Of a DNA stretch of 64,000 bases, positions 3-31,801 are shown in pieces. The position numbers and the translations under genes were made by a program. Under the pieces are notes generated by a model, which worked only from the letters and a program-made list of their open reading frames with translations, was not told the origin of the DNA and searched no databases. Origin of the DNA: Pedobacter sp. (lineage in GTDB: Bacteria; Desulfobacterota; Desulfuromonadia; Desulfuromonadales; Syntrophotaleaceae); assembly GCA_050253415.1 (NCBI GenBank), contig JBFWJC010000001.1, positions 1,608,679-1,672,678 on the forward strand, in the 5' to 3' direction. Within the stretch, counting starts at the first letter, position 1. The number at the start of each line of letters is the position of its first letter.

Positions 3-383
<381 letters not shown>

Positions 384-393
384 TTTTCTCTGT

Positions 394-428
394 GGGGTGG
401 ACTTGTTTCCCAGGTCCGCCCCCGTTTT
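394..428 (+). terminator. Probable intrinsic terminator after lysS
   Basis: 12-bp stem ggggtggacttg/caggtccgcccc (2 G-U pairs) followed by cgtttt. Confidence 0.55.
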
Positions 429-443
429 CCCTTTGGGAGATTC

Positions 444-1697
444 ATGGGCTACGAATGGTTTGTCAGCCTGCGCTATCTGCGGGCCAAACGCAAGCAGACT
501 TTTATCTCGGTCATCTCTTTTATTTCCATCGCTGGAGTGACTCTCGGTGTGGCGGCTCTCATCGTCGTTTTGGCGGTGATGACCGGTTTTCACGACGGGG
601 TAAGGCAGCAGATTCTCGGCAATGTACCGCATGTCCTGATTCAGCAGCAAGGCGGCGCTATTGAAGGCTACCGGGATCTCGTTGATAAGGTCAAACTCCA
701 GGTCCCTGAGGCTGTCGCGGTCAATCCTTTTGTCAGCAAGGAAGCTATGCTTCTTGCGCATCGCAATGTCGCCGCGGTCAGCGTCAAAGGGATAGAGCGA
801 GGCAATAAGGTTTTTTCGCAGCCCTTCCTTAATCTGGACAGTACACAAGTTCAGCAGGCCTTGTTCCGTGAACAGGATGGGATGCCCGGGATTGTACTCG
901 GCCTGGATACCGCGGCTTCTCTCGGAGTGACCCTGGGCGACAGTGTCAATGTTATCCCGCCCAAATTCAACGTTACGCCTTTTGGTCTGATCCCCAAGAT
1001 GAAACCTTTCAGGGTGGTGGGGATATTCCAACATCGGGGTGGTTTTCTCGATGCCTATTTTGCGTATGTCGACCTGGCCCAGGCCCAACAATTTCTCAAT
1101 ACCAATGGCCAGGTCAGTGGGGTGGAAATTGAACTGGCCTCTTTTGAGCAATCGCGCCTGGTGACCAGTCGTCTACGTGAAAAGTTACCTTTTCCCTACC
1201 TCGTCAGTTCCTGGGAAGACCTGTTCGGTTCCTTTCTGTCCGCCCTTAAACTTGAAAAACTCGGCCTTTTTATCGTACTTGGGATTATCGTGCTGGTGGC
1301 TGCCTTCAATATTGCCACCACCTTGATCATGGTGGTCATGGAGAAACATAAAGATATCGCCATACTCAGATCCATGGGGGCCACTTCTCGCAGTATCCTG
1401 CAGATTTTTGTGTTTCAAGGTTTTATCATCGGGACTCTCGGCACGGCTCTGGGGACGGTTTTAGGCGTTGCCCTGGCCAGCAATGCCGATCCTATTATAA
1501 AGGGATTGGAAAGTCTGCTTAAGGTAAGGATTTTTGACCAGGCGGTCTATGGAATGGAGCGCTTTCCTTCGGTCGTTCATTTTGATGATGTGGTCGCGGT
1601 TGCGATGATGGCCATGGTCATCTGTCTGATGGCAACCATTTACCCGGCATGGCGAGCGTCCCGGATGGATCCGGGCGAAGCCCTGCGTTACGAGTAG
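444..1697 (+). CDS. lolC: Lipoprotein-releasing ABC transporter permease LolC/E (single-gene LolF-type)
   Basis: [63 protein letters not shown]; next to lolD. Confidence 0.93.
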
Positions 1698-1710
1698 TGA
1701 GGCGGCCACA

Positions 1711-2376
1711 ATGATTGAAGTAAGTAATTTATGTAAAAGTTTCATCAACGGGACCAGGCGTGTCGATGTTCTTTCGCAGGTCGATTTAAGGATCGACATG
1801 GGCGAAAGAGTTGCGGTGGTCGGTGCATCGGGCGCGGGTAAGTCGTCCTTGATGCATATCCTCGGGGGGTTGGATCGCCCGACCAGCGGCGATGTGCGCT
1901 ATGACGGTCAGGATATATTCAGTTTGCGCGGTGCCGAGCTTGACGGTTTTCGCAATCGCACACTCGGGTTTGTTTTTCAGTTCCACCAGTTGCTCCCTGA
2001 GTTCTCTGCCCTTGAAAATGTCATGATGCCCGCTTTAATCGCACGGTGGCCACGCAGTAAGGCCGAATCCGCGGCCAGGGAGTTGCTTTGTGAAGTCGGT
2101 CTTGAGCCGCGATTAAGTCATAAACCTGGTGAGCTGTCCGGGGGTGAGCAACAACGGGTGGCCATTGCCCGGGCTCTGGTGATGTCGCCCAGGGTACTGC
2201 TTGCCGACGAACCGACCGGTAATCTCGATAGTGGTACATCCGATAGTATTTATCGCTTGCTTACGCGTCTTCACGGTGCACGTGGCCTTACATTGATTAT
2301 TGTGACTCATGATACCCGTCTTGCTGCAGGGCTCGACCGTATTGTTCACATGGCGGATGGTCGGATCGTCGGCTAG
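1711..2376 (+). CDS. lolD: Lipoprotein-releasing ABC transporter ATPase
   Basis: Walker [22 protein letters not shown]olD motif, LSGGEQQR signature, [10 protein letters not shown]. Confidence 0.93.
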
Positions 2377-6796: not shown

Positions 6797-7567
6797 ATGA
6801 TTCATTCAACGGCAATTGTCCATGACGGTGCGCGGATACACGAAAGTGTCGAAATCGGCCCTTATGCTGTGATCGGCTCGAACGTATCTATTGAAGAGGG
6901 TACCCGAGTAGGTGCACATGCCGTCATAGAAGGATGGACTGAAATCGGGAAAGATAATCGCATCTTTCAGTTCACATCGATCGGGGCCGACCCTCAGGAT
7001 CTTAAATTCCATGGTGAAGTTTCCAGCTTGCGCATTGGTGATCGCAATACCATACGCGAGTTTGTAACCATGCACCGGGGTACCGAAGACGGTGGTAGTG
7101 AAACCGTGGTCGGTAACGATAATCTGTTTATGGCTTATGCACATGTGGCACACGACTGCGTTATCGGTAACCGGGTTATTCTGGCGAACGGTGCCACTCT
7201 TGGTGGCCATGTAAGGGTTGAGGATTGGGCCATTCTCGGCGGGCTGTCTGCGGTTCATCAGTTCACCCGTATCGGGAGTCATGCAATGATCAGCGGCGGC
7301 AGCATGGTGGCGCAGGATATCGCGCCCTACCTTATTGCTCAGGGTGACAGGGCCAAAGCCGTCGGTATCAACTTGATAGGTCTCAAACGGCGGAACTTTT
7401 CCGATGAGACCTTACGTGATATCAAGCAGGCTTATAAGTTGATGTTTCGCAGTAATCTGCGTCAGGAAGAGGCCCTTGCGCGTATTACCGCCGAAGTCTC
7501 TGATGCCCCCGAGATTCAAGCGTTTGTCGACTTTATACGGGCCAGTGAACGGGGTGTGGCGCGATGA
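6797..7567 (+). CDS. lpxA: Acyl-ACP--UDP-GlcNAc(3N) acyltransferase
   Basis: IHSTAIV, PQDLKF, HVAHDC, LGGHV, VHQF, GLKRRNFS. Confidence 0.97.
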   Translation: MIHSTAIVHDGARIHESVEIGPYAVIGSNVSIEEGTRVGAHAVIEGWTEIGKDNRIFQFTSIGADPQDLKFHGEVSSLRIGDRNTIREFVTMHRGTEDGGSETVVGNDNLFMAYAHVAHDCVIGNRVILANGATLGGHVRVEDWAILGGLSAVHQFTRIGSHAMISGGSMVAQDIAPYLIAQGDRAKAVGINLIGLKRRNFSDETLRDIKQAYKLMFRSNLRQEEALARITAEVSDAPEIQAFVDFIRASERGVAR

Positions 7568-8508
7568 GCGATCTGCGGGCAGCCGTTATCGGGGTCGGAT
7601 ACCTGGGCCGTTTTCATGCCCAGAAGTATGCAGCTTTGCCCGGCGTAGAATTGATCGGCGTGGTTGATGTGGATCTGGCTGCTGCACAGAAGGTTGCGGC
7701 CGAGGTCGGTTGTCCCGCGTTTTCTGATTATCGTGAATTGATCGAACAAGTCGATCTGGCATCGATCGTCGTGCCTACCCACTTTCATTTTGCAGTAGCG
7801 AAAGAGTTTTTGGCTGCCGGGTGCCATGTGCTGGTGGAGAAGCCGATAACCGAAACGGTCTCCGAGGCGGAAGAGTTGATTGCCTTGGCGCGTCAACATG
7901 ATGCGATATTGCAGGTCGGTCATTTGGAACGCTTCAATCCAGCGATCGTTGCGCTTAACGGTGAATTGAACAAGCCCATGTTTATCGAATCTCACCGTTT
8001 AACCCCTTACCGCGGCCGGGGTACGGATGTGAATGTCGTACTCGATTTGATGATTCACGATATCGATATTATCCTCAACATGGTCAAATCGCCGCTTACC
8101 TCGATCCATGCATCCGGGGTTCCGGTGCTGTCTGGCGAGGTCGATATTGCCAATGCACGCCTCGAATTTGCCAGCGGATGCGTTGCCAATGTTACCGCAA
8201 GCCGCGTCAGTCGTGATGCCATGCGCAAGGTGAGGGTGTTCCAGCCGGACGCTTATTTCTCCATCGACTATCAGAAACGTAAGATTGCCGTTTGCCGTAA
8301 GGATGGAGCCGGGATGGTTCTTCCCGGTCTGCCGGGCATTACCATGCAGGAAAAAGGTTTTGCCGAAAGCGACGCTCTGATGGACGAAATTGGAGCCTTT
8401 GTCGCATCGGTCAAAAATGGTACGCCGCCTGTCGTCGGGGGCGAGGATGGTCGCCGTGCGCTCGAGGTGGCTTTGCAGATCAGCAGTCGCCTGGGTGGTG
8501 TGTTGTAA
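7564..8508 (+). CDS. gnnA: Gfo/Idh/MocA oxidoreductase, probable UDP-GlcNAc 3-dehydrogenase
   Basis: GVGYLG NAD motif, EKP, GHLERFNP, DLMIHDID; located between lpxA and lpxB. Confidence 0.8.
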   Translation: MSDLRAAVIGVGYLGRFHAQKYAALPGVELIGVVDVDLAAAQKVAAEVGCPAFSDYRELIEQVDLASIVVPTHFHFAVAKEFLAAGCHVLVEKPITETVSEAEELIALARQHDAILQVGHLERFNPAIVALNGELNKPMFIESHRLTPYRGRGTDVNVVLDLMIHDIDIILNMVKSPLTSIHASGVPVLSGEVDIANARLEFASGCVANVTASRVSRDAMRKVRVFQPDAYFSIDYQKRKIAVCRKDGAGMVLPGLPGITMQEKGFAESDALMDEIGAFVASVKNGTPPVVGGEDGRRALEVALQISSRLGGVL

Positions 8509-8537
8509 GGCCGCACCTGTCCTTGAACATACTGATT

Positions 8538-8578
8538 AAAAGGCGGGGCCCTATGCCAGTCCTCGCCTTTTGTTATTT
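8538..8578 (+). terminator. Possible intrinsic terminator between gnnA and gnnB
   Basis: aaaaggcgggg...cctcgcctttt stem followed by gttattt. Confidence 0.4.
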
Positions 8579-8825
8579 GTCGTCATGACGAGTCCATCGA
8601 ACTGAATCGTACTATTTTTTGGTTTTTGTAGTTTCACCATTCTGCAATGAGGAAGAAGCTAGACCAAATATTCGATCTTCGCAGTTTTTGACATGCAGGC
8701 GTATCAGCCCGCACCTGTTTCGGCTTGCCATGCGCTGTTTTTGATTTATTTAGTCTCGGCTCCGTTGCATGGCTTGTGGTTGGAATTCCGGCGCTCAGGT
8801 AAATACGTTTTAAAAAGGATAAAAC

Positions 8826-9920
8826 ATGTCCATTCCAATGGTTGATCTTAAACAACAATTCAGCAGTATTAAAGATGAAGTCGTCCAAGGTCTTTTGGAT
8901 GTATTGGACACCACCCGTTTCGTACTCGGTCCTCACGGCGAGGCTCTCGAGCAGGAAATCGCTGCCTATTGCGGAGTCCGCCATGCATTCGGAGTTGCTT
9001 CCGGTACCGACGCTCTGCACCTGGCGTTGCGGGCAGCTGGAATAGGTCCCGGCGATGAGGTCATTACCACTGCATTTACTTTCATAGCGACTGCCGAGGC
9101 GATTGCATACGTGGGTGCCACACCGGTATTTGTAGATATCGACCCGGCCACCTTTAATATCGATGTATCGAAAATAGAAGGTGCCATTACCCCACGCACC
9201 CGTGCTGTCATTCCGGTTCATCTGTATGGGCAGCCCACTGATCTGGCGCCTCTTGTCGTCTTATGTAAAAGTCGTGGTCTGCGAATAATCGAAGATTGTG
9301 CGCAATCTTTTGGCGCTACCTACCAGGACCGTATGACAGGTTCCTGGGGCGATGCAGGGTGCTTTTCATTTTTTCCCAGTAAAAATCTAGGTTGCTACGG
9401 CGACGGTGGCATGATCATCACAAACGATGATGAACTGGCGCAACAAGTGCATATGCTGAGAAACCATGGCAGTCGGGAGCGTTATTACCACGCCGTGATC
9501 GGTTATAACAGTCGCCTGGACGATATGCAGGCGGTGATTTTGCGCACCAAACTGAAACATATCGACACGTACAACCGGCTGCGTCGGGAAAATGCTGCTC
9601 ATTATAATGCACGTCTGGCAAATTCTGCGGTGACGGTGCCCTTTGAAGACGGCAAAGGTATGCACGTTTTTCACCAGTACACTATCCGAGTTCAGGATCG
9701 TGAAAGGGTTCAGAAAGCTCTGGCGGCCGAAGGAATTGCTTCGGCTATTTATTATCCGGTACCTCTTCACCGGCAGGAGGTTTTTATTTCCGATTGCGCC
9801 GGTGTATCTTTACCCGTAACGGACCAGGCTGCCAGCGAGGTACTGTCACTCCCCATGTATCCGGAGCTGATTGAAGAACAGATAGACCGTGTCTGTCAGA
9901 CTTTGTTATCTGCCCTTTAG
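8826..9920 (+). CDS. gnnB: DegT/DnrJ/EryC1/StrS PLP aminotransferase, probable UDP-3-keto-GlcNAc aminotransferase
   Basis: SGTDALHLAL, PVHLYGQ, IEDCAQ, SFFPSKNLGCYGDGG (PLP lysine), GYNSRLD. Confidence 0.82.
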   Translation: MSIPMVDLKQQFSSIKDEVVQGLLDVLDTTRFVLGPHGEALEQEIAAYCGVRHAFGVASGTDALHLALRAAGIGPGDEVITTAFTFIATAEAIAYVGATPVFVDIDPATFNIDVSKIEGAITPRTRAVIPVHLYGQPTDLAPLVVLCKSRGLRIIEDCAQSFGATYQDRMTGSWGDAGCFSFFPSKNLGCYGDGGMIITNDDELAQQVHMLRNHGSRERYYHAVIGYNSRLDDMQAVILRTKLKHIDTYNRLRRENAAHYNARLANSAVTVPFEDGKGMHVFHQYTIRVQDRERVQKALAAEGIASAIYYPVPLHRQEVFISDCAGVSLPVTDQAASEVLSLPMYPELIEEQIDRVCQTLLSAL

Positions 9921-14159: not shown

Positions 14160-15257
14160 ATGGCCCGTTTGGCTCTATTTTACCGTCGCCTCGCCGTTCA
14201 CGGCCCCACAACTTTATCGCAGTGGCTGATTTACACGATTCTGCTGCCGCTGGGTTGGCTGTACGGTGCGTTGATGCAGCTCCGGGTCTTGTTGTATCGA
14301 GTTGGCATATTCGCTTCGTATCGTGCAAGTGTTCCGGTGATTTCTATTGGCAATCTGAGCGTCGGCGGAACCGGTAAAACCCCCGTAGTCGATCATTTGA
14401 TTCGCTATTGTTTGTCTTTGGATAAACGCGTGGCAGTGGTCAGCCGTGGCTACGCAAGCGGTAACCGTTCTGCTCTGCAGATTGTTAGTTCCGGGCAGGG
14501 GCCTCTACTCGATGTGGAGCAGGCAGGGGACGAACCGTGGCTGCTCGCGCGCCGCAATCCCGCAGCCTGCGTTGTTGTGGCGCCCCGTCGTGTGGTGGGG
14601 GTGCGTCACGCTATTGAAGTGCTTGGTGCGGATGTTGTACTGCTCGATGATGGTTTCCAGCATCTGGCTGTGGCTCGCGATTTCGATCTGGTGCTGCTGG
14701 ATGCGCAACGGCCTTTCGGTAATGGCCAAGTGCTTCCTGCCGGTCTCCTACGAGAACCTCGCTCTGCTCTTAAGCGCGGACACCTGTTTTTATTGACCCG
14801 CTGTCCTGAAGGTTTCGTAAACACGCCGCCGTTGCCCGGTCCGATACTGCATTGCCGGCATGAAGTGGCGGATCATGTTGAGTCTCTGGATGGTGAAATG
14901 CGCCTTATCGAGGATCTTGCGCATCTTAGGGGCGTCGCCTTTGCGGGCATCGCCGAGCCCGGGAGTTTTTTCAGCGATCTTGAAAAGCGTGGTTTAAATC
15001 TGGTACAGACCCTTTGTTTTTCCGATCATGCCGGTTATGATGAGCAGGATCTTTCCCGTTTGATCGAAACTGCCGGTTCGGCAGATTATTTCATCACCAC
15101 GGAAAAAGATGCCGTCAAGTTAGTTTCAGCGGCTTTACCTCTGCCTTGTTTTCAGGTTCCTCTGCGGCTGGTTTTTCTCCAGCCCGGGGAGTTGGAAACA
15201 CGCATATTGCCTGTTTTGGAAGGTGATCGAAATGACAATTTCTCAAGAACTGCTTGA
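14160..15257 (+). CDS. lpxK: Tetraacyldisaccharide 4'-kinase
   Basis: IGNLSVGGTGKTP, SRGY, GDEP, LDDGFQH, LPAGLLREP, TTEKDAVK. Confidence 0.96.
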   Translation: MARLALFYRRLAVHGPTTLSQWLIYTILLPLGWLYGALMQLRVLLYRVGIFASYRASVPVISIGNLSVGGTGKTPVVDHLIRYCLSLDKRVAVVSRGYASGNRSALQIVSSGQGPLLDVEQAGDEPWLLARRNPAACVVVAPRRVVGVRHAIEVLGADVVLLDDGFQHLAVARDFDLVLLDAQRPFGNGQVLPAGLLREPRSALKRGHLFLLTRCPEGFVNTPPLPGPILHCRHEVADHVESLDGEMRLIEDLAHLRGVAFAGIAEPGSFFSDLEKRGLNLVQTLCFSDHAGYDEQDLSRLIETAGSADYFITTEKDAVKLVSAALPLPCFQVPLRLVFLQPGELETRILPVLEGDRNDNFSRTA

Positions 15258-15408
15258 TATTCTTGCCTGCCCCCGATGTAAGGGACCCGTGCGACCGGTG
15301 GACGAACCCGAAGGACTGGTGTGCGAAAACTGTCGACTTAGATACCCCATTGTGGATGACATTCCCGTTATGCTTATCGACGAGGCCCAGCCTTTCGATA
15401 TTGGTTGA
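15232..15408 (+). CDS. Trm112/YcaR family small protein
   Basis: LLDILACPRCKG...LVCENCRLRYPIVDDIPVMLIDEA; typical position after lpxK. Confidence 0.9.
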   Translation: MTISQELLDILACPRCKGPVRPVDEPEGLVCENCRLRYPIVDDIPVMLIDEAQPFDIG

Positions 15409-15436
15409 ACCCACGACTTCTGCGGAGTTACTTTTT

Positions 15437-16468
15437 TTGAAACCGATTGATCCGAAAACTGTTCGCCGCATCATGCTGCGATCGACTAATTGGGTCGGGG
15501 ATGCGGTCATGACTACCCCGGCGATGGCCGATTTGCGTAGTGCCTTTCCCGAGGCTGAAATCGTGGTAGTCGCCAACCCTTTGGTGGCACACCTGTTCAC
15601 CCATCATCCCTACTGCGACCGGGTGATCGTTTACGATAAGAAGGGCGCTCATAAAGGGGTTCTTGGGTTATGGCGATTTGCCCGGCAACTTCGCAGGGAA
15701 AAATTCGATCTGGCCGTTTTATTGCAAAATGCCATCGATGCCGCCATTCTGGCCTTTTGCGCAGGCATACCCCGTCGTGCCGGTTATCGAACCGATGCGC
15801 GCGGCCTGCTATTGACCCATGGCGTCGCCGTTGGTCCCGAACAGAAACGTTTGCATCATACCGATTATTATCGGCACATGCTGCGGCACATCTGTCGTGG
15901 CGAAGGTGACGGCAAGCTGCGCCTTGCCTGCACCGAAGAGGAGCAACACTGGGCGAAGGAAACCCTCGGAGCAGGTTCCCGGGTGGCTATCAATCCGGGG
16001 GCTGCATATGGCTCTGCCAAGCGCTGGCTGCCCGAACGCTTTGCCGCAGTGGCCGACGGATTGGCACGGGAATTTGGGCTGCAGGTTGTTCTTACCGGTG
16101 GTCCCGGAGAGATGGAAATAGGCCGGGATATCGAAAAGGCCATGAGTACCCCGGCATTGAATCTGATTGGGCAGACTTCTGTGCGCCAGTTGATGGCTGT
16201 ATTGTCGGAATGTCAGTTGGTGATCACCAACGATTCCGGCCCGATGCATGTCGCTGCAGCATTTGATATCCCTATTGTGGCGGTATTCGGTCCGACTGAC
16301 CACACCACCACTTCGCCCTGGTCGCAAAAATGTCGTATCGTGCGTAAACCCACCGACTGTGCGCCCTGTCTGCTCAGGCAGTGTCCAACCGATCATCGCT
16401 GTATGCGGGCGATTTTGCCGGAAGACGTATTGGATGCAGCGCGTGAAGTTCTGGGAGACATTCGATGA
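15437..16468 (+). CDS. waaF: LPS heptosyltransferase II (GT9)
   Basis: NWVGDAVM, NPGAAYGSAKRW, TNDSGPMHVAAA, FGPT; TTG start at 15437 inferred from GGAG upstream. Confidence 0.92.
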   Translation: MKPIDPKTVRRIMLRSTNWVGDAVMTTPAMADLRSAFPEAEIVVVANPLVAHLFTHHPYCDRVIVYDKKGAHKGVLGLWRFARQLRREKFDLAVLLQNAIDAAILAFCAGIPRRAGYRTDARGLLLTHGVAVGPEQKRLHHTDYYRHMLRHICRGEGDGKLRLACTEEEQHWAKETLGAGSRVAINPGAAYGSAKRWLPERFAAVADGLAREFGLQVVLTGGPGEMEIGRDIEKAMSTPALNLIGQTSVRQLMAVLSECQLVITNDSGPMHVAAAFDIPIVAVFGPTDHTTTSPWSQKCRIVRKPTDCAPCLLRQCPTDHRCMRAILPEDVLDAAREVLGDIR

Positions 16469-17514
16469 GGATTCTGATCGTCAAAATCAGTGCTCTCGGT
16501 GACGTCGTGCATGCCTTGCCAGTTCTGGCCTATATCAAAAGCGCTTATCCCGAAGCCAAAATCGACTGGTTGGTCGAAGAAGCGTTTGCGCCGCTGTTAG
16601 AGGGACATTCCCTTTTGCGCAAAGTGCACCGTCTGGGACTTAAACGCTGGCGCCGGGAAGGACTGCGTGCCGTCCTTTCCGGAATAAAAGCCACGTTGAC
16701 CGACCTGCGTCATGAACGCTACGATCTCGTACTCGATCTTCAGGGCAACTGCAAAAGCGGGTTGTTCACCTTGTTGTGTGGTGCCCCAAGGCGTTATGGC
16801 TTTTCACGTAGTGGCGTACGGGAATGGCCCAACCTGCTTGCCACCAACCATAAAGTGCATCTTACCTCTGCCGATCATCATATCAGTGACCGGTCTCTGA
16901 CTGTGGCACGTGAAGCCTTTCCCGCCGGCAGTGTGCGTCCCCTTGCAGGACCTATGTGTGTATCGCCCAAGGCGCGTACCGTTGTGGATAAACAACTCAC
17001 TGAACTCGATTTAAACGGTCGATCTCTGGTTGTTTTTCAATATGGAACCACCTGGAATACCAAATTGTGGCCCCTCGATTGCTGGCAGCAACTGGCACAG
17101 CGGCTTTGCCGGGAAGACCAATTGCGCCCGGTATTGATTTGGGGGAACGATGCCGAGCTGCACGCTGCGGAGATGATTTCCCGGGCCACTGGTGGTCAGG
17201 CCGTCGTCTGGCCGCGGGGTACGTTGCAGGAACTGGCCGCTTTGCTGGAAAGAGCCAATCTGGTTGTTGGCGGGGATACGGGGCCGATCCATATTGCAGC
17301 CGCTCTTGAAACTCCTACCGTATCTATTTTTCGGGTTACGGATGCTTCGCGTAATGGGCCGCGTGGCGCGCTTCACATTCGCTTACAAAGTCCTATGCAA
17401 TGTTCCCCTTGCCTGAAAAAAGAGTGTGTCAAGGATGCGGAATGCGGCCATAGTATTTCCGTCGATCAAGTCCTGGACGCCGTTCGCAAGCAACTTAACG
17501 GAAAACGACGATGA
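16465..17514 (+). CDS. waaC: LPS heptosyltransferase I (GT9)
   Basis: MRILIVKISALGDVVHALP, IDWLVEE, DLQG..KS, GDTGPIHIAAAL. Confidence 0.9.
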   Translation: MRILIVKISALGDVVHALPVLAYIKSAYPEAKIDWLVEEAFAPLLEGHSLLRKVHRLGLKRWRREGLRAVLSGIKATLTDLRHERYDLVLDLQGNCKSGLFTLLCGAPRRYGFSRSGVREWPNLLATNHKVHLTSADHHISDRSLTVAREAFPAGSVRPLAGPMCVSPKARTVVDKQLTELDLNGRSLVVFQYGTTWNTKLWPLDCWQQLAQRLCREDQLRPVLIWGNDAELHAAEMISRATGGQAVVWPRGTLQELAALLERANLVVGGDTGPIHIAAALETPTVSIFRVTDASRNGPRGALHIRLQSPMQCSPCLKKECVKDAECGHSISVDQVLDAVRKQLNGKRR

Positions 17515-20543: not shown

Positions 20544-21134
20544 ATGGCGGTAGCTGCAATACAGACATATTTTAAGCAACTTCAGGGGGTTATGGATCGG
20601 GTTGGTCGTGATAAATCCGATGCGATTGTGCAATGTGTTCATCTGGTTGTCGACACTCTGCGCGAAGGGGGCAAGGTTCTGGTCATGGGCAATGGTGGCT
20701 CTGCGGCAGATGCCCAACACTTCGCAGCTGAACTGGTGGGGCGTTTTCTCATGGAGCGTAAGGCCTTGCCTTCCATTGCGTTAACTACTGATTCCTCAAT
20801 ATTGACAGCGGTAGGCAACGATTACGGGTTTGACGAGATTTTCAAGCGGCAAGTTGAGGCGCTTGCCCGCCCTGGCGATGTGGTCATCGGCATATCCACC
20901 AGTGGGATGTCTAAAAATGTTTTTCACGCTCTGATCGCAGCGAATCAGATTGGCTGTAAAACGGTCGGTCTGCTTGGGCGTGATGGCGGTACTATCGCCG
21001 GCATCGTGGACATTAATCTGACTGTGGCGGAAGAGCATACTCCTTTTATTCAGACCGCTCATGGTGCGGTGCTCCATCTGCTTTGCGATTTGCTGGAAAA
21101 GGAATTGTTTCCCCCTTCGGGGCAAACGGAGTAG
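20544..21134 (+). CDS. gmhA: D-sedoheptulose 7-phosphate isomerase
   Basis: GNGGSAADAQHFAAELVGRF, LTAVGNDYG, GISTSG. Confidence 0.93.
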   Translation: MAVAAIQTYFKQLQGVMDRVGRDKSDAIVQCVHLVVDTLREGGKVLVMGNGGSAADAQHFAAELVGRFLMERKALPSIALTTDSSILTAVGNDYGFDEIFKRQVEALARPGDVVIGISTSGMSKNVFHALIAANQIGCKTVGLLGRDGGTIAGIVDINLTVAEEHTPFIQTAHGAVLHLLCDLLEKELFPPSGQTE

Positions 21135-21209: not shown

Positions 21210-21923
21210 ATGGACAAAATTTCATTTGTCATACCGATTTACAATGAAGAGGGTAATGTCGAGCGATTGTTCAACGAACTGACCCGTGTAGCTGAGACTC
21301 TGGGGCGTCCTTATGAAATCATGCTCGTGGATGATGCCAGTACCGACCGTAGTCTGCAGATTATCAAGGAGTTGGCGGCATCCCACGCACAGGTACGTTA
21401 CCTGTCCTTTAAAACCAATTGCGGACAGTCTGCAGCGCTGTACGCGGGTTTTCAAAACGCTGATGGCGATATTATCATTACCATGGATGCCGATCTTCAG
21501 AATGATCCGGCCGACATCCCGAAACTTATGCAGTTTTTTGGTGAATACGATATGATCAACGGTTGGCGAGCCAACCGTCAGGATACCCTGTCTAAAAAAG
21601 TCGGTAGCCGCATCGGAAATTATGTGCGCAATCGACTGACCTGGGAGACTATTCACGATACCGGTTGCTCTTTGAAAGTTATGCGGGCCAGCATGCTTAA
21701 GCGGATACGCATGTTTCGCGGCCTGCACCGGTTTCTGCCAACCCTTATGCGTCTCGAAGGGGCTCGGGTCATCGAAGTACCGGTCAATCACCGTCCCCGG
21801 GTTCACGGCGTCTCCAAATACAACAATCTGCGGCGTGGCATCGAGGGGATTTATGATGTTATAGCCGTACGCTGGATGATTAAGCGTTATCTGAAAATCA
21901 GCATTGGTGATACCAATGTTTAG
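21210..21923 (+). CDS. GT2 polyprenol-phosphate glycosyltransferase (ArnC/DPM-like)
   Basis: VIPIYNEE, VDDASTD, GQSAALYAG, TMDADLQNDPAD, DTGCSLK, HRFLPTL, VNHRPR. Confidence 0.88.
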   Translation: MDKISFVIPIYNEEGNVERLFNELTRVAETLGRPYEIMLVDDASTDRSLQIIKELAASHAQVRYLSFKTNCGQSAALYAGFQNADGDIIITMDADLQNDPADIPKLMQFFGEYDMINGWRANRQDTLSKKVGSRIGNYVRNRLTWETIHDTGCSLKVMRASMLKRIRMFRGLHRFLPTLMRLEGARVIEVPVNHRPRVHGVSKYNNLRRGIEGIYDVIAVRWMIKRYLKISIGDTNV

Positions 21924-22197
21924 CACTGAAAACTCGATATTGCTTCTTGGTTTGGTGGGGCAGGCCCTGTTTTCCATGCGCTTTATCATCCAGTGGGTAT
22001 ATTCCGAGAAACACCGCCAGAGTGTTATTCCTACGGCATTTTGGTACTTCAGCCTTGGGGGCAGTTTGTTGTTGTTGGTTTATTCCCTTTTGCGTCGAGA
22101 CATTGTATTTACCCTCGGACAATCGACCGGTTTTCTCATCTATGGTCGTAACCTCTATTTTATTCATAAACAACGCAAAGAAAGTGCCATCGCCTGA
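21916..22197 (+). CDS. Small membrane protein, lipid A biosynthesis N-terminal (LAB_N) family
   Basis: GQALFSMRFIIQWVYSE...SVIPTAFWYFSLGG...RDIVFTLGQ...IYGRNL; three hydrophobic segments. Confidence 0.85.
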   Translation: MFSTENSILLLGLVGQALFSMRFIIQWVYSEKHRQSVIPTAFWYFSLGGSLLLLVYSLLRRDIVFTLGQSTGFLIYGRNLYFIHKQRKESAIA

Positions 22198-22265
22198 TAT
22201 CTCTATCAGGACCACGTTTTCCTCCCTTTCATCTATGGTTTTTTTGTAACGGACTCCCAGGGATT

Positions 22266-23777
22266 ATGATGAATATTTCCAATACTTCCGGTGCATTTCT
22301 TCAACCCGAGTCTGATCGAGATGGGTTGTTTCGACTGTTTTTCTGGCTGGTGTTTGCCGGCTCCCTGCTGGTGTATGGGTGGGGTATCTGGGGAGTCCCG
22401 CTTCTCAGCCACAATGAGGCGCGCCGGTTGGTGGTGCTTCGGGAATTGCTCGCTAGCGGCGACTGGTTGGTGCCGACCAAAAACAGTCAGATTTATCTGC
22501 AAAAACCGCCCTTGTTCACCTGGTTCGGGGCGGTATTCGGGCTGTTGGCCAGTAGCAGTGCCGAATGGGTTTTGCGATTGCCTTCAGCGTTAAGCGGACT
22601 AGGGGCTACATGGCTGTTGTTTTTTCGTTTGAAACAGCGTGTCGGCCGTTGGGAGGCACTGATCGGGTCTGCGATTCTGGTGACATCGTACTTTTTCTCA
22701 TCCAAGGCTCGTGTGGCTGAATTGAATATGCTGCTGACAATGTGTGTCTTTGCGGCGGTGGTGTGTTTTTACGACTATATCTGCGATGGCAGACGTAAGT
22801 ATCTTTACTTGGCCTATGGTGCACTGGGCCTGGCATTTATGACTAAAGGCCCTGTGGCGTTATTGTTTTTTGTTCTGCCGGTTCTTGTTTTTGGAATATT
22901 GGAAAAAGACCGTCGGGTACTCAAAGGTCTGATCGACGGTCGTGGCTGGTTGCTGTTCGCGCTTATCGGTTTGCCATGGTACCTGTTCGTAACGCTTCGA
23001 TTGCAGGGATTGCCTTTGCTGGCGGTTATTCGTAGTGAAGTGTCATCCAAGGTAGCAGAGGAAGCGCATCGCCCCGAGCCCCTGTATTACTATGTCAGGC
23101 ATCTGCTGGGGGCTTTTGCACCCTGGGTGCTGTTGATCTGCTATCGGCCACTGCGTACCCTTAAGTACATGGCCGCTACAAAACCTGGACGTTTTTTCGG
23201 GTTGGCGGCCTTGGTGCCATTACTCATCTTTTCCCTTTTCGATTACAAGCGGGATAAATACATTCTGCCAATGTATCCGGCCCTTGCGGTTTGTCTCGGC
23301 ATGGTGGCGGCACATTGGCGTTCTGAAATGTGCGCTCGTGGCCGTCGATGGATTAGTCCCTTGATGGTTTGGGGTAGCGCCGTCTTAATGCTGCTACTGG
23401 TTGTGTTTTACGGGTTTTTTGAACCACGCATGGTTTCCTACCGATTTGAAGCACTCAAGCCCCTGGCGGCACGTATCGATCAGTTGCGCGGTGATGCTCC
23501 GGTTTACTATCTTGGCGAAGAACCGATCCAGTTGATCTATTATTACGGTCGTTCCATCCCTGGTACTACCGTTGAAGAAGTGGCCGACTGGCAGACCCAG
23601 CAGCGTCATTTTGTGGTACTCGTACAGAAAAAGCATGTCGGCGAGGTTGAGACTCTTGGATTGACCGTGCTTGACCAGGTTAAACCCTATCTATCGCGTC
23701 GTGGTGTTATGTTCATTATGGCCAGTAAGGGTTTAGAAATGTCAGCGATACCGGAAATTGACGACAATCTCCCTTGA
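22266..23777 (+). CDS. ArnT/PMT-like (GT83/GT39) integral membrane glycosyltransferase
   Basis: EARR..RE..GDWLVP, KPPLF.W, LRLPSAL, MTKGP, PWY, YILPMYPALA; many TM segments. Confidence 0.88.
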   Translation: MMNISNTSGAFLQPESDRDGLFRLFFWLVFAGSLLVYGWGIWGVPLLSHNEARRLVVLRELLASGDWLVPTKNSQIYLQKPPLFTWFGAVFGLLASSSAEWVLRLPSALSGLGATWLLFFRLKQRVGRWEALIGSAILVTSYFFSSKARVAELNMLLTMCVFAAVVCFYDYICDGRRKYLYLAYGALGLAFMTKGPVALLFFVLPVLVFGILEKDRRVLKGLIDGRGWLLFALIGLPWYLFVTLRLQGLPLLAVIRSEVSSKVAEEAHRPEPLYYYVRHLLGAFAPWVLLICYRPLRTLKYMAATKPGRFFGLAALVPLLIFSLFDYKRDKYILPMYPALAVCLGMVAAHWRSEMCARGRRWISPLMVWGSAVLMLLLVVFYGFFEPRMVSYRFEALKPLAARIDQLRGDAPVYYLGEEPIQLIYYYGRSIPGTTVEEVADWQTQQRHFVVLVQKKHVGEVETLGLTVLDQVKPYLSRRGVMFIMASKGLEMSAIPEIDDNLP

Positions 23778-25093: not shown

Positions 25094-25245
25094 CCTCGTG
25101 GCAACTTGTTGCAACTGACAGCTGCAATTGAGAGTGATTTACCTGTGCGGGACCTCTACTTTCTTGGCCGCATGTTGGGCTCAGACAGCGATTCTTTGCG
25201 GGGCATTCGTCTCTTTTGTTTGATTTAAAGAAAATGATGGGATTT

Positions 25246-25917
25246 ATGAAGAGATTTTTGAAAAAGTGTCTGCCCGAAAAAATAGTTTTCTTCCGGGAGT
25301 CTTTCAATGATTTCCCTTACAGAAAATATATGAATAAAAATAAATGTATTTTTATTCACATCCCGAAGGCAGCAGGAACCAGTGTGCTTAATGTTTTGTC
25401 TAAAAAGAAAGTACCCAGGGATCATTGCAGCTATAATATATTTTTGCAATCGTCAAAGAAAAAATTTCACCGGTATTTCAAGTTCTGTTTTGTAAGAAAT
25501 CCTTACACTAGACTCATGTCTGTATATTACTACCTGAAAAATGGTGGGAATGGGAAATCAGATCTTGAGATACAAGAGTTGATAAGGCAAAAATATACAA
25601 CTTTCGAAAAATTTGTGCTTGATTATTTGGATAAAGACTTGATTTATCAAATCGCTTTACTTCGTCCTCAGTATAGTTATGTCTGTAATTATAAATATGA
25701 AATAATGGTAGACTTTTGCGGAAGATTTGAAAATATTGATAGCGACTTTTCAACTGTATGTAAGACTTTGCGAATAAAAAAGAGTCTTCCTAAATTGAAT
25801 AAAACAAATTATAAAAATAATGTTGATAAAATTCAGTCTATACAAAAAGAAGTAATTGAGAAAATTAATAGTCTGTATGCAAAAGACTTCGAAGTTTTCG
25901 GATATGATTTGAGATGA
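25246..25917 (+). CDS. Sulfotransferase family protein (Sulfotransfer_2-like)
   Basis: 5'-PSB motif FIHIPKAAGTSV, 3'-PB motif FVRNPYTRLMSVY, GRFE, LYAKDFEVFGY; very AT-rich; start uncertain (25216-25246). Confidence 0.87.
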   Translation: MKRFLKKCLPEKIVFFRESFNDFPYRKYMNKNKCIFIHIPKAAGTSVLNVLSKKKVPRDHCSYNIFLQSSKKKFHRYFKFCFVRNPYTRLMSVYYYLKNGGNGKSDLEIQELIRQKYTTFEKFVLDYLDKDLIYQIALLRPQYSYVCNYKYEIMVDFCGRFENIDSDFSTVCKTLRIKKSLPKLNKTNYKNNVDKIQSIQKEVIEKINSLYAKDFEVFGYDLR

Positions 25918-28574: not shown

Positions 28575-28623
28575 TCGTGGAATGCTGGTTTGAGCGGTAT
28601 TGCGGCCAGGGAGAAGGAAGACA

Positions 28624-29574
28624 ATGAAACGTTATCAGTTGATGGATTTTTCCGGTGTTAAACGGTATTCAATTACTACCCGGGACAACAAGGTCAAGGT
28701 TGGTGAGCATTTTGCCGAACCGCCACGGGCGGGCCGTTCCTTCAGCGAATTTTTTGACAGCCTTCCGCATCTGCTGGGTGCCGACAATCTGCGGGGCGTA
28801 GTCGATGCGGTCGTGCATGCCCGTGAAAAGGGCAGGCCTGTGGTTCTCGCCATGGGCGGACATGTCATCAAATGCGGCCTTCAACCGGTCATCAAGGCTC
28901 TTATCGACGCCGATGTGATTACGGCGGTGGCGACCAACGGCTCGGTAACCATTCATGATTACGAGGTGTCCCTGGTCGGTGCCACTTCTGAAGATGTCGC
29001 TGCTGTGCTGGCCTCGGGAGATTTCGGATTTTCCCTGGAAACCGGACAGGGGATGAACGACATACTCAAGCGGGGGATGGCCGGTGAGCTTGGATTCGGC
29101 CATGCCATCGGGCGGGCGATTATCGATCAAAAGCATCCTTATCAGGAATTTAGTCTGCTGGCCGCCTGCGTTAATAAGGGCATACCTGTCACCGTGCATG
29201 TGGCCATTGGCACCGATATTATCCACCAGCATCCTGAAGCCGATGGTGGTGTGATAGGTGAAATGAGTTACCGGGATTTCAGGCTGCTGACCTCGGTAGT
29301 GGCGGATCTCGGAGACGGTGGGGTCTGGCTTAATGTGGGGTCGGCAGTGTTGCTGCCGGAAGTTTTCCTGAAAGCCTTGTCCATCGCACAGAACCTGGGA
29401 TATCATGTCGACGGTTTCAGCACCGCCAATTTCGATATGATACAGCACTACCGACCGCTTACCAACGTGGTCAAGCGTCCCACTCAGGGCAGCGGCCGTG
29501 GGTATACCATCACGGGACATCATGAAATTAACATCCCTTTGTTTGCTCAGGCAGTGCTCGACCGGCTTGGCTGA
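28624..29574 (+). CDS. Conserved hypothetical protein, deoxyhypusine-synthase-like fold (function unknown)
   Basis: Clean ORF with SD-like sequence upstream; segments VLAMGGHVIKCGL..IKALI...ITAVATNG..IHDYE, SLLAAC..GIPVTV and GGVWLNVGS parallel DHS-family blocks. Confidence 0.8.
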   Translation: MKRYQLMDFSGVKRYSITTRDNKVKVGEHFAEPPRAGRSFSEFFDSLPHLLGADNLRGVVDAVVHAREKGRPVVLAMGGHVIKCGLQPVIKALIDADVITAVATNGSVTIHDYEVSLVGATSEDVAAVLASGDFGFSLETGQGMNDILKRGMAGELGFGHAIGRAIIDQKHPYQEFSLLAACVNKGIPVTVHVAIGTDIIHQHPEADGGVIGEMSYRDFRLLTSVVADLGDGGVWLNVGSAVLLPEVFLKALSIAQNLGYHVDGFSTANFDMIQHYRPLTNVVKRPTQGSGRGYTITGHHEINIPLFAQAVLDRLG

Positions 29575-29739
29575 CAATCCCGGTCAGGTAGGCAGACTGC
29601 CTCTGGAGGGTGAAAGTCTTGCATAATCCGGCCGGATATGGTAAGCGCTGGTGCGCATATAACGATCACAGTGCCGGCCCTGATTGCCGGTTTCTTTTTT
29701 GTCACCTTCGTTCATGTTAAAGCCAATAATGGAAGACTA

Positions 29740-31212
29740 ATGGATCGAACAAAAATAGAAAATTTCCTGGGCCGATTGAGCGGCATCCGGGCGCTGGTTA
29801 TCGGCGACTTGATGTTGGATGAATATCTGTGGGGGCGTACAGAACGGATTTCCCCCGAGGCCCCGGTACAGGTAGTCGATATCCTGCGTGAGGACCTGCG
29901 CCTTGGCGGCGCCGGCAACGTCATCAATAATCTGGTAACGCTCGGTTGTCAGGTTCATGTTGCCAGCGTACTGGGTGAAGGGCACGACGGCCTTTTGTTA
30001 CGCCGCCGGTTGGAAGAAAAGCATGTCGGTATTGAAGGGTTGCAGTTCGATGGCATGCGAACCACCAGCCGTAAAACCCGCATTCTGGCTTCCGGTCAGC
30101 AGATGATGCGATTTGACCGAGAGAGTCGTACTCCTATCGATGCGCGGCAGGAGGCCGCCCTTGCCGATTTTGTGCGCAATAACGCCGACCGTTTCGATGT
30201 CATCCTGGTTTCCGATTATCTCAAGGGTGTGCTCACCGATGGCCTTCTGCAGGCGGTGATCGCCGTCGGCAAACAAAAGGGTATCCCGGTGGTGATCGAT
30301 CCCAAGGGTAACGATTATGGCAAATACCGTGGCGCCACTCTGTTGACTCCCAATCGCAAGGAAACCGAGGTTGCTTCCGGGGTCGCGATTGTCGATGAGC
30401 AAAGTCTGCGCTTGGCAGCTCGTACCCTCATGCAGCGCATCGACCTTGAAACGTTGATGGTAACCCGCAGCGAGGAAGGCATTTCGATTTTCTTCCGCAA
30501 CGGTGAGGAAGTCCATCTACCTACCCAGGCGCGCGAAGTGTATGATGTCACCGGCGCTGGTGATACGGTTTTGTCACTGGTCGGGCTCGGCCTGGCCGGA
30601 GCTTTGCCGGTCAGCGATGCCGCCGCTTTAGCTAATATAGGCGCAGGGATCGTTGTCGGCAAGGTTGGCACCTCGACGGTTAGCGTTGAGGAAATCCGCG
30701 AAGCCCTGGCTCATCATGCTATGGAGTACGATTCCAAAATCAGGCTGCGCGAACCGTTGCGTGCTATTCTGGAAGACGAACGGCGGCGTGGCAAAACCAT
30801 CGTATTCACCAACGGTTGTTTTGACTTGTTACATGTCGGTCACGTCAAGTACCTTCAAAAGGCCCGTCGTCTTGGCGATATCCTGGTTTTGGGTCTTAAT
30901 TCCGATGCCTCCATACGACGCCTCAAGGGGGCTAACCGCCCGCTCATCGGCGAAGAGGAACGGGCGCATATCCTGGCGGCTCTCAGCTGTATTGATTACG
31001 TGGTGGTGTTCGACGAGGATACTCCCCTGGAGTTGATTGCCATGCTGCGCCCGGACATCCTGGTAAAGGGGGGCGATTATACGCCGGAAACCGTGGTGGG
31101 TAAGGATATCGTAGAGAGTTACGGTGGCCGTGTGGCCCTTGTCGACTTGGTTGATGGGCGTTCTACGAGCAACATAATAGAGCGGATTCTGGATCGTTAT
31201 GAACAAGGGTGA
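29740..31212 (+). CDS. hldE: Bifunctional heptose 7-phosphate kinase / heptose 1-phosphate adenylyltransferase
   Basis: GDLMLDEY, RISPEAPV, GGAGNV, DVTGAGDTV (PfkB), FTNGCFDLLHVGH, LVKGGDY. Confidence 0.97.
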   Translation: MDRTKIENFLGRLSGIRALVIGDLMLDEYLWGRTERISPEAPVQVVDILREDLRLGGAGNVINNLVTLGCQVHVASVLGEGHDGLLLRRRLEEKHVGIEGLQFDGMRTTSRKTRILASGQQMMRFDRESRTPIDARQEAALADFVRNNADRFDVILVSDYLKGVLTDGLLQAVIAVGKQKGIPVVIDPKGNDYGKYRGATLLTPNRKETEVASGVAIVDEQSLRLAARTLMQRIDLETLMVTRSEEGISIFFRNGEEVHLPTQAREVYDVTGAGDTVLSLVGLGLAGALPVSDAAALANIGAGIVVGKVGTSTVSVEEIREALAHHAMEYDSKIRLREPLRAILEDERRRGKTIVFTNGCFDLLHVGHVKYLQKARRLGDILVLGLNSDASIRRLKGANRPLIGEEERAHILAALSCIDYVVVFDEDTPLELIAMLRPDILVKGGDYTPETVVGKDIVESYGGRVALVDLVDGRSTSNIIERILDRYEQG

Positions 31213-31801
31213 GTCGATAAGCGCCCTTCGCAAAGCGGTGTTTCTGGATCGCGACGGTACGATCAACGAAGAAAGGAACTATCTGCATCGGATAGAGGAT
31301 TTTGCCTTTATTCCCGGTGTGCCTCTGGCTATACGGCGTCTTAATCAGGCCGGATTCCTGGTGATCGTTGTGACGAATCAATCAGGTGTGGCGCGCGGAT
31401 ATTTTGAACTGGCCGATGTGGAGCGTCTGCATGAGCACGTCGCTTGTCGCCTGGCATCCGAGCAGGCACATGTGGACGGTTTTTTTATTTGCCCTCATCA
31501 CCCGGAGGCCGGCATTGGCCACTTACGCAGACAGTGCGATTGTCGTAAAGGGGCACCGGGGCTGCTGTTGCAGGCTGCCGAACAGTTGCACGTCGACTTG
31601 AGCCAGTCATTTATGGTCGGCGACAAGAATGCCGATATGGAAGCCGGACGGAGAGCTGGTTGCACTCCTCTGCTGGTGATGACCGGTTACGGTTCTGAGA
31701 CAGCGCGTAGTATTGATCCCGCCATCGGGCGTTTTGCCAGCCTGGTGGAGGCGGTAGATTTCATTTTGCGGCAGGACGGTAACGAAAAAGTTACTGCCTG
31801 A
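31199..31801 (+). CDS. gmhB: D,D-heptose 1,7-bisphosphate phosphatase
   Basis: FLDRDGTIN, VTNQSGVARG, CPHHP..CDCRK, MVGDK. Confidence 0.95.
   Translation: MNKGESISALRKAVFLDRDGTINEERNYLHRIEDFAFIPGVPLAIRRLNQAGFLVIVVTNQSGVARGYFELADVERLHEHVACRLASEQAHVDGFFICPHHPEAGIGHLRRQCDCRKGAPGLLLQAAEQLHVDLSQSFMVGDKNADMEAGRRAGCTPLLVMTGYGSETARSIDPAIGRFASLVEAVDFILRQDGNEKVTA

Follow-up and report, generated by a model that had tools for sequence, protein, structure and literature searches.

We analysed a 64,000-nucleotide stretch of the Pedobacter sp. genome GCA_050253415.1 (Desulfobacterota, Syntrophotaleaceae), here called the window, which covers C1:1608679-1672678. At 28624-29574 on its + strand lies a gene of the GSU2086 family. 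This family is catalogued but functionally unassigned, and the window gene is an ordinary member of it. The GSU2086 family very probably belongs functionally to the nucleotide-heptose pathway of lipopolysaccharide (LPS), as a fifth enzyme. We give a probability of about one in two to an HldD-like role, that of a heptose C6 epimerase which works by hydride shuttling with bound NAD+ or a nickel-pincer cofactor. GmhA, HldE, GmhB and HldD have been regarded as the full ADP-heptose pathway. ADP-heptose is an innate-immune signal, and its pathway is an antibiotic target.

The window gene encodes a soluble protein with a dinucleotide-binding fold of the deoxyhypusine synthase (DHS)/ornithine cyclodeaminase type. 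The proposed enzyme would invert C6 of D-glycero-D-manno-heptose to give the L-glycero form used by WaaC and WaaF. It would act on ADP-heptose, or possibly on a heptose phosphate. The hydride would be moved onto a tightly bound pyridinium cofactor and then returned on the opposite face. For this cofactor there are two candidates, NAD+ and the nickel-pincer (adenine di)nucleotide that LarB, LarC and LarE make. The reaction of HldD, a short-chain dehydrogenase/reductase (SDR), would in this way be carried out by an unrelated fold.

Family membership, sequence and fold

The window protein matched the NCBIfam model NF052581, "GSU2086 family protein", end to end with 419.2 bits (cut-off 250). The match spans residues 7-309 of the protein and positions 2-300 of the 301 in the profile. 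This is the only copy of the family in the genome. The family itself is large: clustering at 90% identity gave at least 8000 clusters, and at 50% identity there were 2571 representatives with E <= 1e-3. Our literature search on GSU2086 returned a transposon-insertion sequencing (Tn-seq) study only, and no functional description of the family was found by these searches. A literature search linking heptose with DHS found no paper.

In an alignment of 71 family members, 37-78% identical to the window protein, 7 columns are invariant and about 40 nearly so. The conserved blocks are G78-x-H80-x-x-K83-x-G85, N105-G106...H111-D112-x-E114 and G233...N237-x-G239-S240...K250. The motif blocks picked out by an earlier, sequence-only reading of this DNA are present in the translation and fall on invariant or nearly invariant columns. 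AlphaFold2, run from the 71-sequence alignment, gave a model with a pLDDT of 96.8 and a pTM of 0.92. When the model was compared with the PDB by Foldseek, DHS came out on top (7cmc_A from Pyrococcus, probability 1.00, E 1.8e-9, TM 0.61, 16% identity), which agrees with the DHS fold proposed in the sequence-only reading. The next matches were the Methanococcus "LOR/SDH" protein 3c2q (E 6.3e-8) and the C-terminal part of ArgZ (6juy, E 2.2e-7). In all, 100 chains had E <= 1e-3, most of them DHS.

DHS is thus the best structural match, and some UniRef relatives are named "Deoxyhypusine synthase". Both points speak for a polyamine enzyme of the deoxyhypusine or homospermidine synthase type that happens to sit in an LPS cluster. 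However, the Pfam deoxyhypusine synthase family (DS, PF01916) reached only 17.8 bits against a gathering threshold of 27 (E 0.0021), over the 61 residues 53-113. Identity to the DHS structures is 10-17%, and the conserved fusions described below are to heptose enzymes. The catalytic lysine of DHS lies in a C-terminal SWGK-type motif. By eye, the 316-residue translation contains no "WGK" string, so the absence of this motif reported earlier holds. On the sub-threshold Pfam score, the low structural identity and the heptose-enzyme fusions we rejected a DHS or polyamine function, which is now extremely improbable. The earlier view that the protein is not a DHS was correct.

By sequence, the order of the relatives was the opposite of that given by Foldseek. 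In the profile-to-PDB search, ArgZ (6juy, 1.3e-5), AgrE (6lrh/6lrf, about 6e-5) and 3c2q (4.9e-4) came first and DHS only after these (E 0.021 and 0.14), all matches lying on profile residues 51-119. Pfam gave sub-threshold matches to the window protein over about 60 residues, among them ArgZ-like_C_2nd with 19.8 bits (cut-off 27). The genome's only other weak match to the GSU2086 family model was a 405-residue TIGR00300 protein, an ornithine cyclodeaminase encoded at L010:1033-2250 (-) on contig C4 (469 bits to TIGR00300, cut-off 410.8). When the family alignment was compared with this protein by hhalign, the two aligned with 93.7% probability over 129 columns (residues 56-198 to 185-314) and had in common the motif His-Asp-x-Glu-x-x-Leu-x-Gly-x-(Thr/Ser)-Ser. 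For the window protein itself, no TIGR00300 match was listed in the NCBIfam search (equivalog cut-off 410.8 bits). No SDR or TIGR02197 match was found at E <= 0.01 in the Pfam and NCBIfam profile searches. Within the DHS/cyclodeaminase-fold group, the window protein stands closer by sequence to the cyclodeaminases than to DHS, and it belongs to neither family.

Association with the heptose pathway

We scanned over-length proteins among the 150 best 50%-identity representatives for fused domains, 17 of them with Pfam and 16 with NCBIfam. The commonest partner among the 16 was the HldC/rfaE-domain-II adenylyltransferase, which was fused to GSU2086 in six. It scored above its cut-off in P0134 and P0146; in P0141, P0167, P0248 and P0216 it was the best-scoring partner but fell short of the cut-off. 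Other members of the same set were fused to a complete HldE (P0198), to an rfaE-domain-I type kinase (P0219), to GmhA-like domains (P0150 and P0228) and to a GmhB-like HAD domain (P0205). Two carried tandem double GSU2086 domains (P0124 and P0201), and three had no assignable partner (P0128, P0173 and P0209). These fusions are predicted proteins and some could be gene-calling errors, but the same partners recur independently. Since the commonest partner, the adenylyltransferase, makes the substrate of HldD, action of the family on ADP-heptose would fit. One of the fusions, P0167, has a triple architecture in which an ARMT1-type damage-control phosphatase and the HldC-like adenylyltransferase are joined to GSU2086.

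Gene order was surveyed by tblastn with this genome's own proteins at 80 loci from named genomes, within 6 kb and under at least 10 phylum labels. Fifty of these loci had one or more heptose genes. The labels include Desulfuromonadales, Geobacterales, Nitrospirota, Poribacteria, Omnitrophota, Acidobacteriota, Bacteroidota, Planctomycetota, Methylomirabilota, KSB1, Cloacimonadota and Verrucomicrobia. GmhA matched in 28 loci, the HldE kinase in 20, the HldE adenylyltransferase in 17, WaaF in 18, WaaC in 17 and GmhB in 5. Neighbours (52 proteins) were scanned in 22 of the 30 loci that had no heptose match. Four Poribacteria loci have an O-antigen ligase gene directly upstream, and three Planctomycetota/Brocadiaceae loci have the LpxK gene there; one locus had a LapB-like gene and the remainder were unrelated. 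Among 80 metagenome loci, which were picked for likeness to a GSU2086::GmhA-like fusion, 57 had one or more heptose genes within up to 9 kb. The conserved linkage to heptose genes expected in the sequence-only reading is therefore seen both in recurrent fusions and in gene order.

A non-catalytic dinucleotide-binding subunit, serving as a regulator or scaffold of HldE or GmhA, would account for a family that is fused or adjacent to all four pathway domains rather than to one. It would not account for the invariant or nearly invariant columns, among them His, Asp, Glu and Lys positions in loops that correspond to the active-site loops of the relatives, nor for the very high identity across phyla (37-54% among the 50%-cluster representatives). 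We regard such a role as very improbable.

In Geobacter sulfurreducens, GSU2086 lies between gmhA (GSU2087) and hldE (GSU2085) (PMC5585712). In that study, insertions in the three genes behaved alike in Tn-seq on electrodes, with values of -3.2 for GSU2086, -3.1 for hldE and -3.7 for gmhA, and supplement 3 records 13 tolerated insertion sites in GSU2086. The effect of the GSU2086 insertions could be polar on hldE, which weakens this result as support for an epimerase.

Two loci, L096 and L097, have a different make-up. Each has a GmhA-fused member followed by a heptose-type kinase (rfaE_dom_I, 161 bits, under cut-off), with no adenylyltransferase within 7-9 kb and with sugar-acid genes adjoining. 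Upstream stands a divergent D-mannonate-oxidoreductase-like SDR gene, at the place where L095, to which both are the closest relatives, has a LarC2 gene. These cassettes argue against ADP-heptose as a universal substrate, because no adenylyltransferase was found there. The family may act on a heptose phosphate, at least in contexts of this type. Together with P0265, in which the Pfam scan showed a GSU2086 fragment joined to GH38 mannosidase domains, they favour an enzyme that acts on free heptose phosphates in salvage or catabolism, with its position in LPS clusters reflecting precursor supply and not the final epimerisation. However, the adenylyltransferase is the commonest scanned partner (6/16, plus one whole HldE), most loci are of LPS type, and the window copy stands between core glycosyltransferases and hldE. 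We regard a salvage role as unlikely. As for the C6 epimerase, one that acts before adenylylation would equally make HldD unnecessary.

Occurrence of hldD and the lar genes

The sequence-only reading started from the absence of hldD. This was right for the window locus, since the 10 SDR matches that the HldD model gives in this genome all lie outside the window, and wrong for the genome. A TIGR02197 search of all 18 contigs found one match above the cut-off, at C1:209792-210724 with 451.2 bits (cut-off 274.6). The same open reading frame (ORF; L001:1480-2529, - strand) gave 504 bits to NF008360. This canonical hldD is about 1.4 Mb distant from the window. The nine other SDR matches scored 112.6 bits or less and are ordinary paralogues. 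The neighbours of hldD are a DinG/YoaA-like helicase and a TehB-like methyltransferase, not LPS genes. The closest named relatives of its product are from Syntrophotalea carbinolica (90%) and other Desulfuromonadales, and the next, at 71-75% identity, are from Gammaproteobacteria (Thiohalomonadaceae, Thiohalophilus, Acidihalobacter and Competibacteraceae). Judged from sequence, this hldD was probably acquired laterally by one Desulfuromonadales lineage. Because the genome has a canonical hldD elsewhere, the window gene is not simply a replacement of HldD here. We would picture it as the member of an ancestral LPS cluster that now stands alongside a second, probably laterally acquired, canonical hldD.

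We then compared the occurrence of the two genes across genomes. Our sample of the own phylum had 301 genomes, each at least 90% complete. The GSU2086 family was above its cut-off in 191 of them and hldD in 73, the latter count being subject to the caveat that the search scored the top 7 candidates per genome. GSU2086 only was found in 177 genomes, hldD only in 59, both in 14 (including this genome) and neither in 51, an odds ratio of 0.07. By GTDB family, the first 30 listed comprise 16 with GSU2086 only, 4 with hldD only, 6 with both somewhere and 4 with neither. The heptose adenylyltransferase domain was present in 286 of the 301 genomes at E <= 1e-30, and above its cut-off in 253. The 121 Acidobacteriota genomes gave a similar result: 37 had GSU2086 only, 21 hldD only, 1 both and 62 neither (odds ratio 0.08). 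This sample includes G358 and G333, which are flagged as unpublished; leaving them out alters the affected counts by one each.

We also scored all candidates in 27 named carriers from other lineages; hldD was above the cut-off in two, Geomesophilobacter sediminis and "Bacterium BMS3Bbin14". The best SDR match of the remaining carriers was 152 bits or less where a score was returned. In the G. sulfurreducens gene table (PMC5585712, supplement 3), none of the 13 "epimerase" rows is an ADP-heptose 6-epimerase, and four of the 13 are generic nucleoside-diphosphate-sugar epimerase/dehydratases. The anti-correlation with hldD predicted in the sequence-only reading is thus observed in two phyla and among the named carriers. 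At the level of the family, most carriers have no canonical hldD; this genome has one. The idea of an HldD replacement is consequently supported for the family by fusions, gene order and anti-correlation, and is contradicted by hldD in the genome for which it was made.

Several observations count against the epimerase. The two genes coexist in this genome, where a duplicate function would be redundant, and both were found in 14/191 carriers of the phylum, 1/38 in Acidobacteriota and 2/27 of those named. Neither gene was found in 51/301 and 62/121 genomes, though most of these carry an rfaE-domain-II-like gene; 8 of the 51 also have no adenylyltransferase domain. An adenylyltransferase-like gene without GSU2086 or hldD therefore occurs in 43/301 genomes of the own phylum, of which about 23 exceed the cut-off of the adenylyltransferase model (by eye, from E-values), and in about 60/121 Acidobacteriota. 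Because so many adenylyltransferase genomes have neither gene, a missing hldD need not demand a substitute, and an epimerase is not obviously obligatory; further unknown epimerases may also exist in such genomes. The genomes counted are related and not phylogenetically independent, and the Fisher P value of the own-phylum table is therefore too optimistic. Regarding L,D-heptose in the LPS of carriers without hldD, literature searches on the heptose configuration of Geobacter LPS found nothing usable.

These observations bear on a different assignment within the pathway. The enzyme might carry out another hydride-shuttling or redox step, such as epimerisation at another carbon or oxidation of a hydroxyl, and so give a modified heptose for the core or another glycan. 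The fusions and gene order point to the pathway and not to a given reaction, coexistence with hldD in this genome is easier if the two reactions differ, and many genomes have neither GSU2086 nor hldD. However, an unrelated extra step would not be expected to show so strong a negative association with hldD as is seen in two phyla and in the named genomes, and the family is found in LPS clusters with only ordinary WaaC and WaaF. We regard this assignment as a tentative alternative, less probable than the C6 epimerase. In the genomes sampled, HldD is missing from most Desulfobacterota and from many members of other phyla although the first four activities are present, and the GSU2086 family is carried instead. 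Assigning its reaction would fill a gap in LPS core biosynthesis over a large part of bacterial diversity.

The cofactor of the C6 epimerase may be NAD+, as the sequence-only reading assumed, or a nickel-pincer nucleotide. An epimerase needs to invert a hydroxyl-bearing carbon, and nickel-pincer enzymes, which are hydride shuttles, do this. DHS and ornithine cyclodeaminase of the ArgZ/AgrE type transiently abstract a hydride onto a bound dinucleotide. An ornithine cyclodeaminase was recently reported to use a nickel-pincer adenine dinucleotide non-covalently (Desguin 2025, as cited in PMC13524815). The NCBIfam name of TIGR00300, [quoted passage not shown], agrees with this. In the present genome larB, larC and larE were all above their cut-offs (C2:735721-737057 and C2:693962-694741), and a Lar_N search of the genome found no LarA-like gene. 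These lar genes could serve the cyclodeaminase paralogue of the genome.

Across the own phylum, larC was found in 265 of the 301 genomes: in 186/191 carriers of GSU2086 vs 79/110 non-carriers. It was missing from 5 of the 177 genomes with GSU2086 only, from none of the 14 with both, from 27 of the 59 with hldD only and from 4 of the 51 with neither. The five larC-negative carriers are 91-94% complete; G159, G253 and G277 have larB, G051 has larE and G298 a partial larE. In Acidobacteriota, larC was present in 36/38 carriers vs 53/83 non-carriers. One of the two larC-negative carriers, G427, has a LarA-like gene. Of the named carriers, 22/27 have larC. One gene adjacency was also found: in the metagenome locus L095, a LarC2 gene at 3-542 (+) (151 bits, cut-off 50) ends about 90 nt 5' of a GSU2086::GmhA-like gene at 634-2373 (+).

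Dependence on the nickel-pincer cofactor meets objections of its own. No larC was found in 5/27 named carriers; these are one metagenome-assembled genome each of Acidobacteriota, Thermodesulfovibrionia, KSB1, Omnitrophota and Cloacimonadota, with no completeness figure given. One of these five, G306, which is also the other larC-negative carrier of the Acidobacteriota sample, has none of larB, larC and larE. The lar genes are widespread in any case, being present in 72% and 64% of the non-carriers of the two phyla. They were neighbours of the family in 0/80 genome loci (6 kb) and in 1/80 metagenome loci. Finally, among 34 Acidobacteriota genomes with larC but without a LarA-like gene or a cyclodeaminase, 13 carry GSU2086 and 21 do not (odds ratio 0.86), a comparison that does not discriminate. 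Given these 21 genomes with an orphan larC, other nickel-pincer users presumably exist. Taking homology and the near-universal co-occurrence with lar together, the odds that the GSU2086 family uses a nickel-pincer cofactor appear roughly even. The joint proposal, a nickel-pincer (adenine di)nucleotide-dependent heptose 6-epimerase, is more doubtful, and we hold it only as a possibility.

If the cofactor is nickel-pincer, the family would account for part of the many "orphan" larBCE sets and extend the known chemistry of that cofactor. If the joint proposal is true, LPS biosynthesis would have its first nickel enzyme, and a nickel-pincer enzyme would for the first time be seen to act on a nucleotide sugar or sugar phosphate. 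Desulfobacterota, Acidobacteriota, Nitrospirota, Poribacteria, Planctomycetota and other groups would then need nickel and larBCE to make their inner-core heptose, and HldD would be a nickel-independent alternative, gained laterally by some lineages including this one. New in this analysis are figures for the anti-correlation with hldD in two phyla, the homology to a nickel-pincer cyclodeaminase, the co-occurrence with lar together with its exceptions, and the single larC2 adjacency.

The window locus and known systems

The GSU2086-family gene (28624-29574, +) encodes 316 residues from an ATG at 28624, as the sequence-only reading had given it. The mechanical ORF call opens earlier, at TTG 28600. 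A Shine-Dalgarno-like GGAGAAGGA (GGAG/AAGGA stretch) was read from the sequence at 28610..28618 (+), 5-13 nt 5' of the ATG. Homologues of 316-322 residues, up to 97% identical, cover the window protein by 99-100%, and therefore ATG 28624 is the likely start. An opposite-strand ORF of 302 residues at 28669-29577 was set aside, since the + strand protein has full-length, high-scoring homologues. A terminator and promoter scan around the gene found 6 terminator-like sites vs 4.9 expected, which is chance level and does not indicate operon boundaries.

The stop codon is followed 64 nt downstream by the start of hldE (29638-31212, +), the bifunctional heptose 7-phosphate kinase/heptose 1-phosphate adenylyltransferase (TIGR02198 372.2 bits, cut-off 345; TIGR02199 219.4 bits, cut-off 181.5). 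Its end is overlapped by gmhB (31199-31801, +), the heptose 1,7-bisphosphate 7-phosphatase gene (NF006506 189.9 bits, cut-off 178). Upstream on the same strand are waaF for heptosyltransferase II (15254-16468; TIGR02195 210.7 bits, cut-off 134.6), waaC for heptosyltransferase I (16465-17514; TIGR02193 241.1 bits, cut-off 185.3) and gmhA for sedoheptulose 7-phosphate isomerase (20544-21134; SIS_2 110.9 bits). The gmhA product gave 205.7 bits to TIGR00441, just below the cut-off of 209.45. All five heptose genes named in the sequence-only reading thus have profile matches.

The gene lies inside a long LPS cluster. The early part of this cluster holds lpxD-fabZ-lpxA, a GnnA/GnnB-like pair, lpxB, msbA, waaA and lpxK. 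After waaF-waaC come two core kinases, gmhA and ArnC/ArnT-like genes, then three GT4 glycosyltransferases and a sulfotransferase, and then the GSU2086 gene, hldE and gmhB. Three features of the cluster were noted in passing. Between lpxA and lpxB lie a UDP-GlcNAc 3-dehydrogenase-like gene and an aminotransferase gene (7564-9920, +), the GnnA/GnnB-like pair, as would be expected if lipid A is built on 2,3-diamino-2,3-dideoxyglucose. Immediately 3' of gmhA, an ArnC-like GT2 gene and an ArnT/PMT_2-like membrane glycosyltransferase gene (21210-23777, +) are likely a lipid A or core glycosylation module. A Sulfotransfer_2 protein (69.7 bits) is encoded at 25216-25917 (+), in the group of three GT4 genes that separates gmhA from the GSU2086 gene; a sulfated core or surface glycan is possible.

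Four known systems can be compared with the family. HldD (RfaD/GmhD; TIGR02197/NF008360) works in the same pathway, and the proposed logic is the same, oxidation and re-reduction at C6 via a bound pyridinium cofactor. The two are mutually exclusive in distribution in most genomes. However, they are unrelated in fold and sequence, with no SDR match for the GSU2086 protein, and the cofactor of GSU2086 is possibly not the NADP+ of HldD. The archaeal-type ornithine cyclodeaminase of TIGR00300 (the C-terminal domain of ArgZ/AgrE; 6juy, 6lrh, 3c2q) is the closest characterised relative by sequence and has the same fold. Only the central 130-140 residues or so align, and GSU2086 does not reach the TIGR00300 model. 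Its context is heptose and not arginine or ornithine, and the substrate would be an alcohol and not an amine. DHS (PF01916; 7cmc, 1dhs) is the best structural match (TM about 0.6), with a Rossmann-like dinucleotide-binding core and similar glycine-rich loops. In contrast to DHS, GSU2086 is without the catalytic-lysine motif, stays below the Pfam threshold and has no link to IF5A or polyamines. LarA and its kin, the nickel-pincer 2-hydroxyacid racemases and epimerases, are unrelated to GSU2086 in sequence and fold. If the cofactor of GSU2086 is nickel-pincer, the two would nevertheless share their chemistry, proton-coupled hydride transfer with inversion at a hydroxyl-bearing carbon, and the same dependence on LarB, LarC and LarE.

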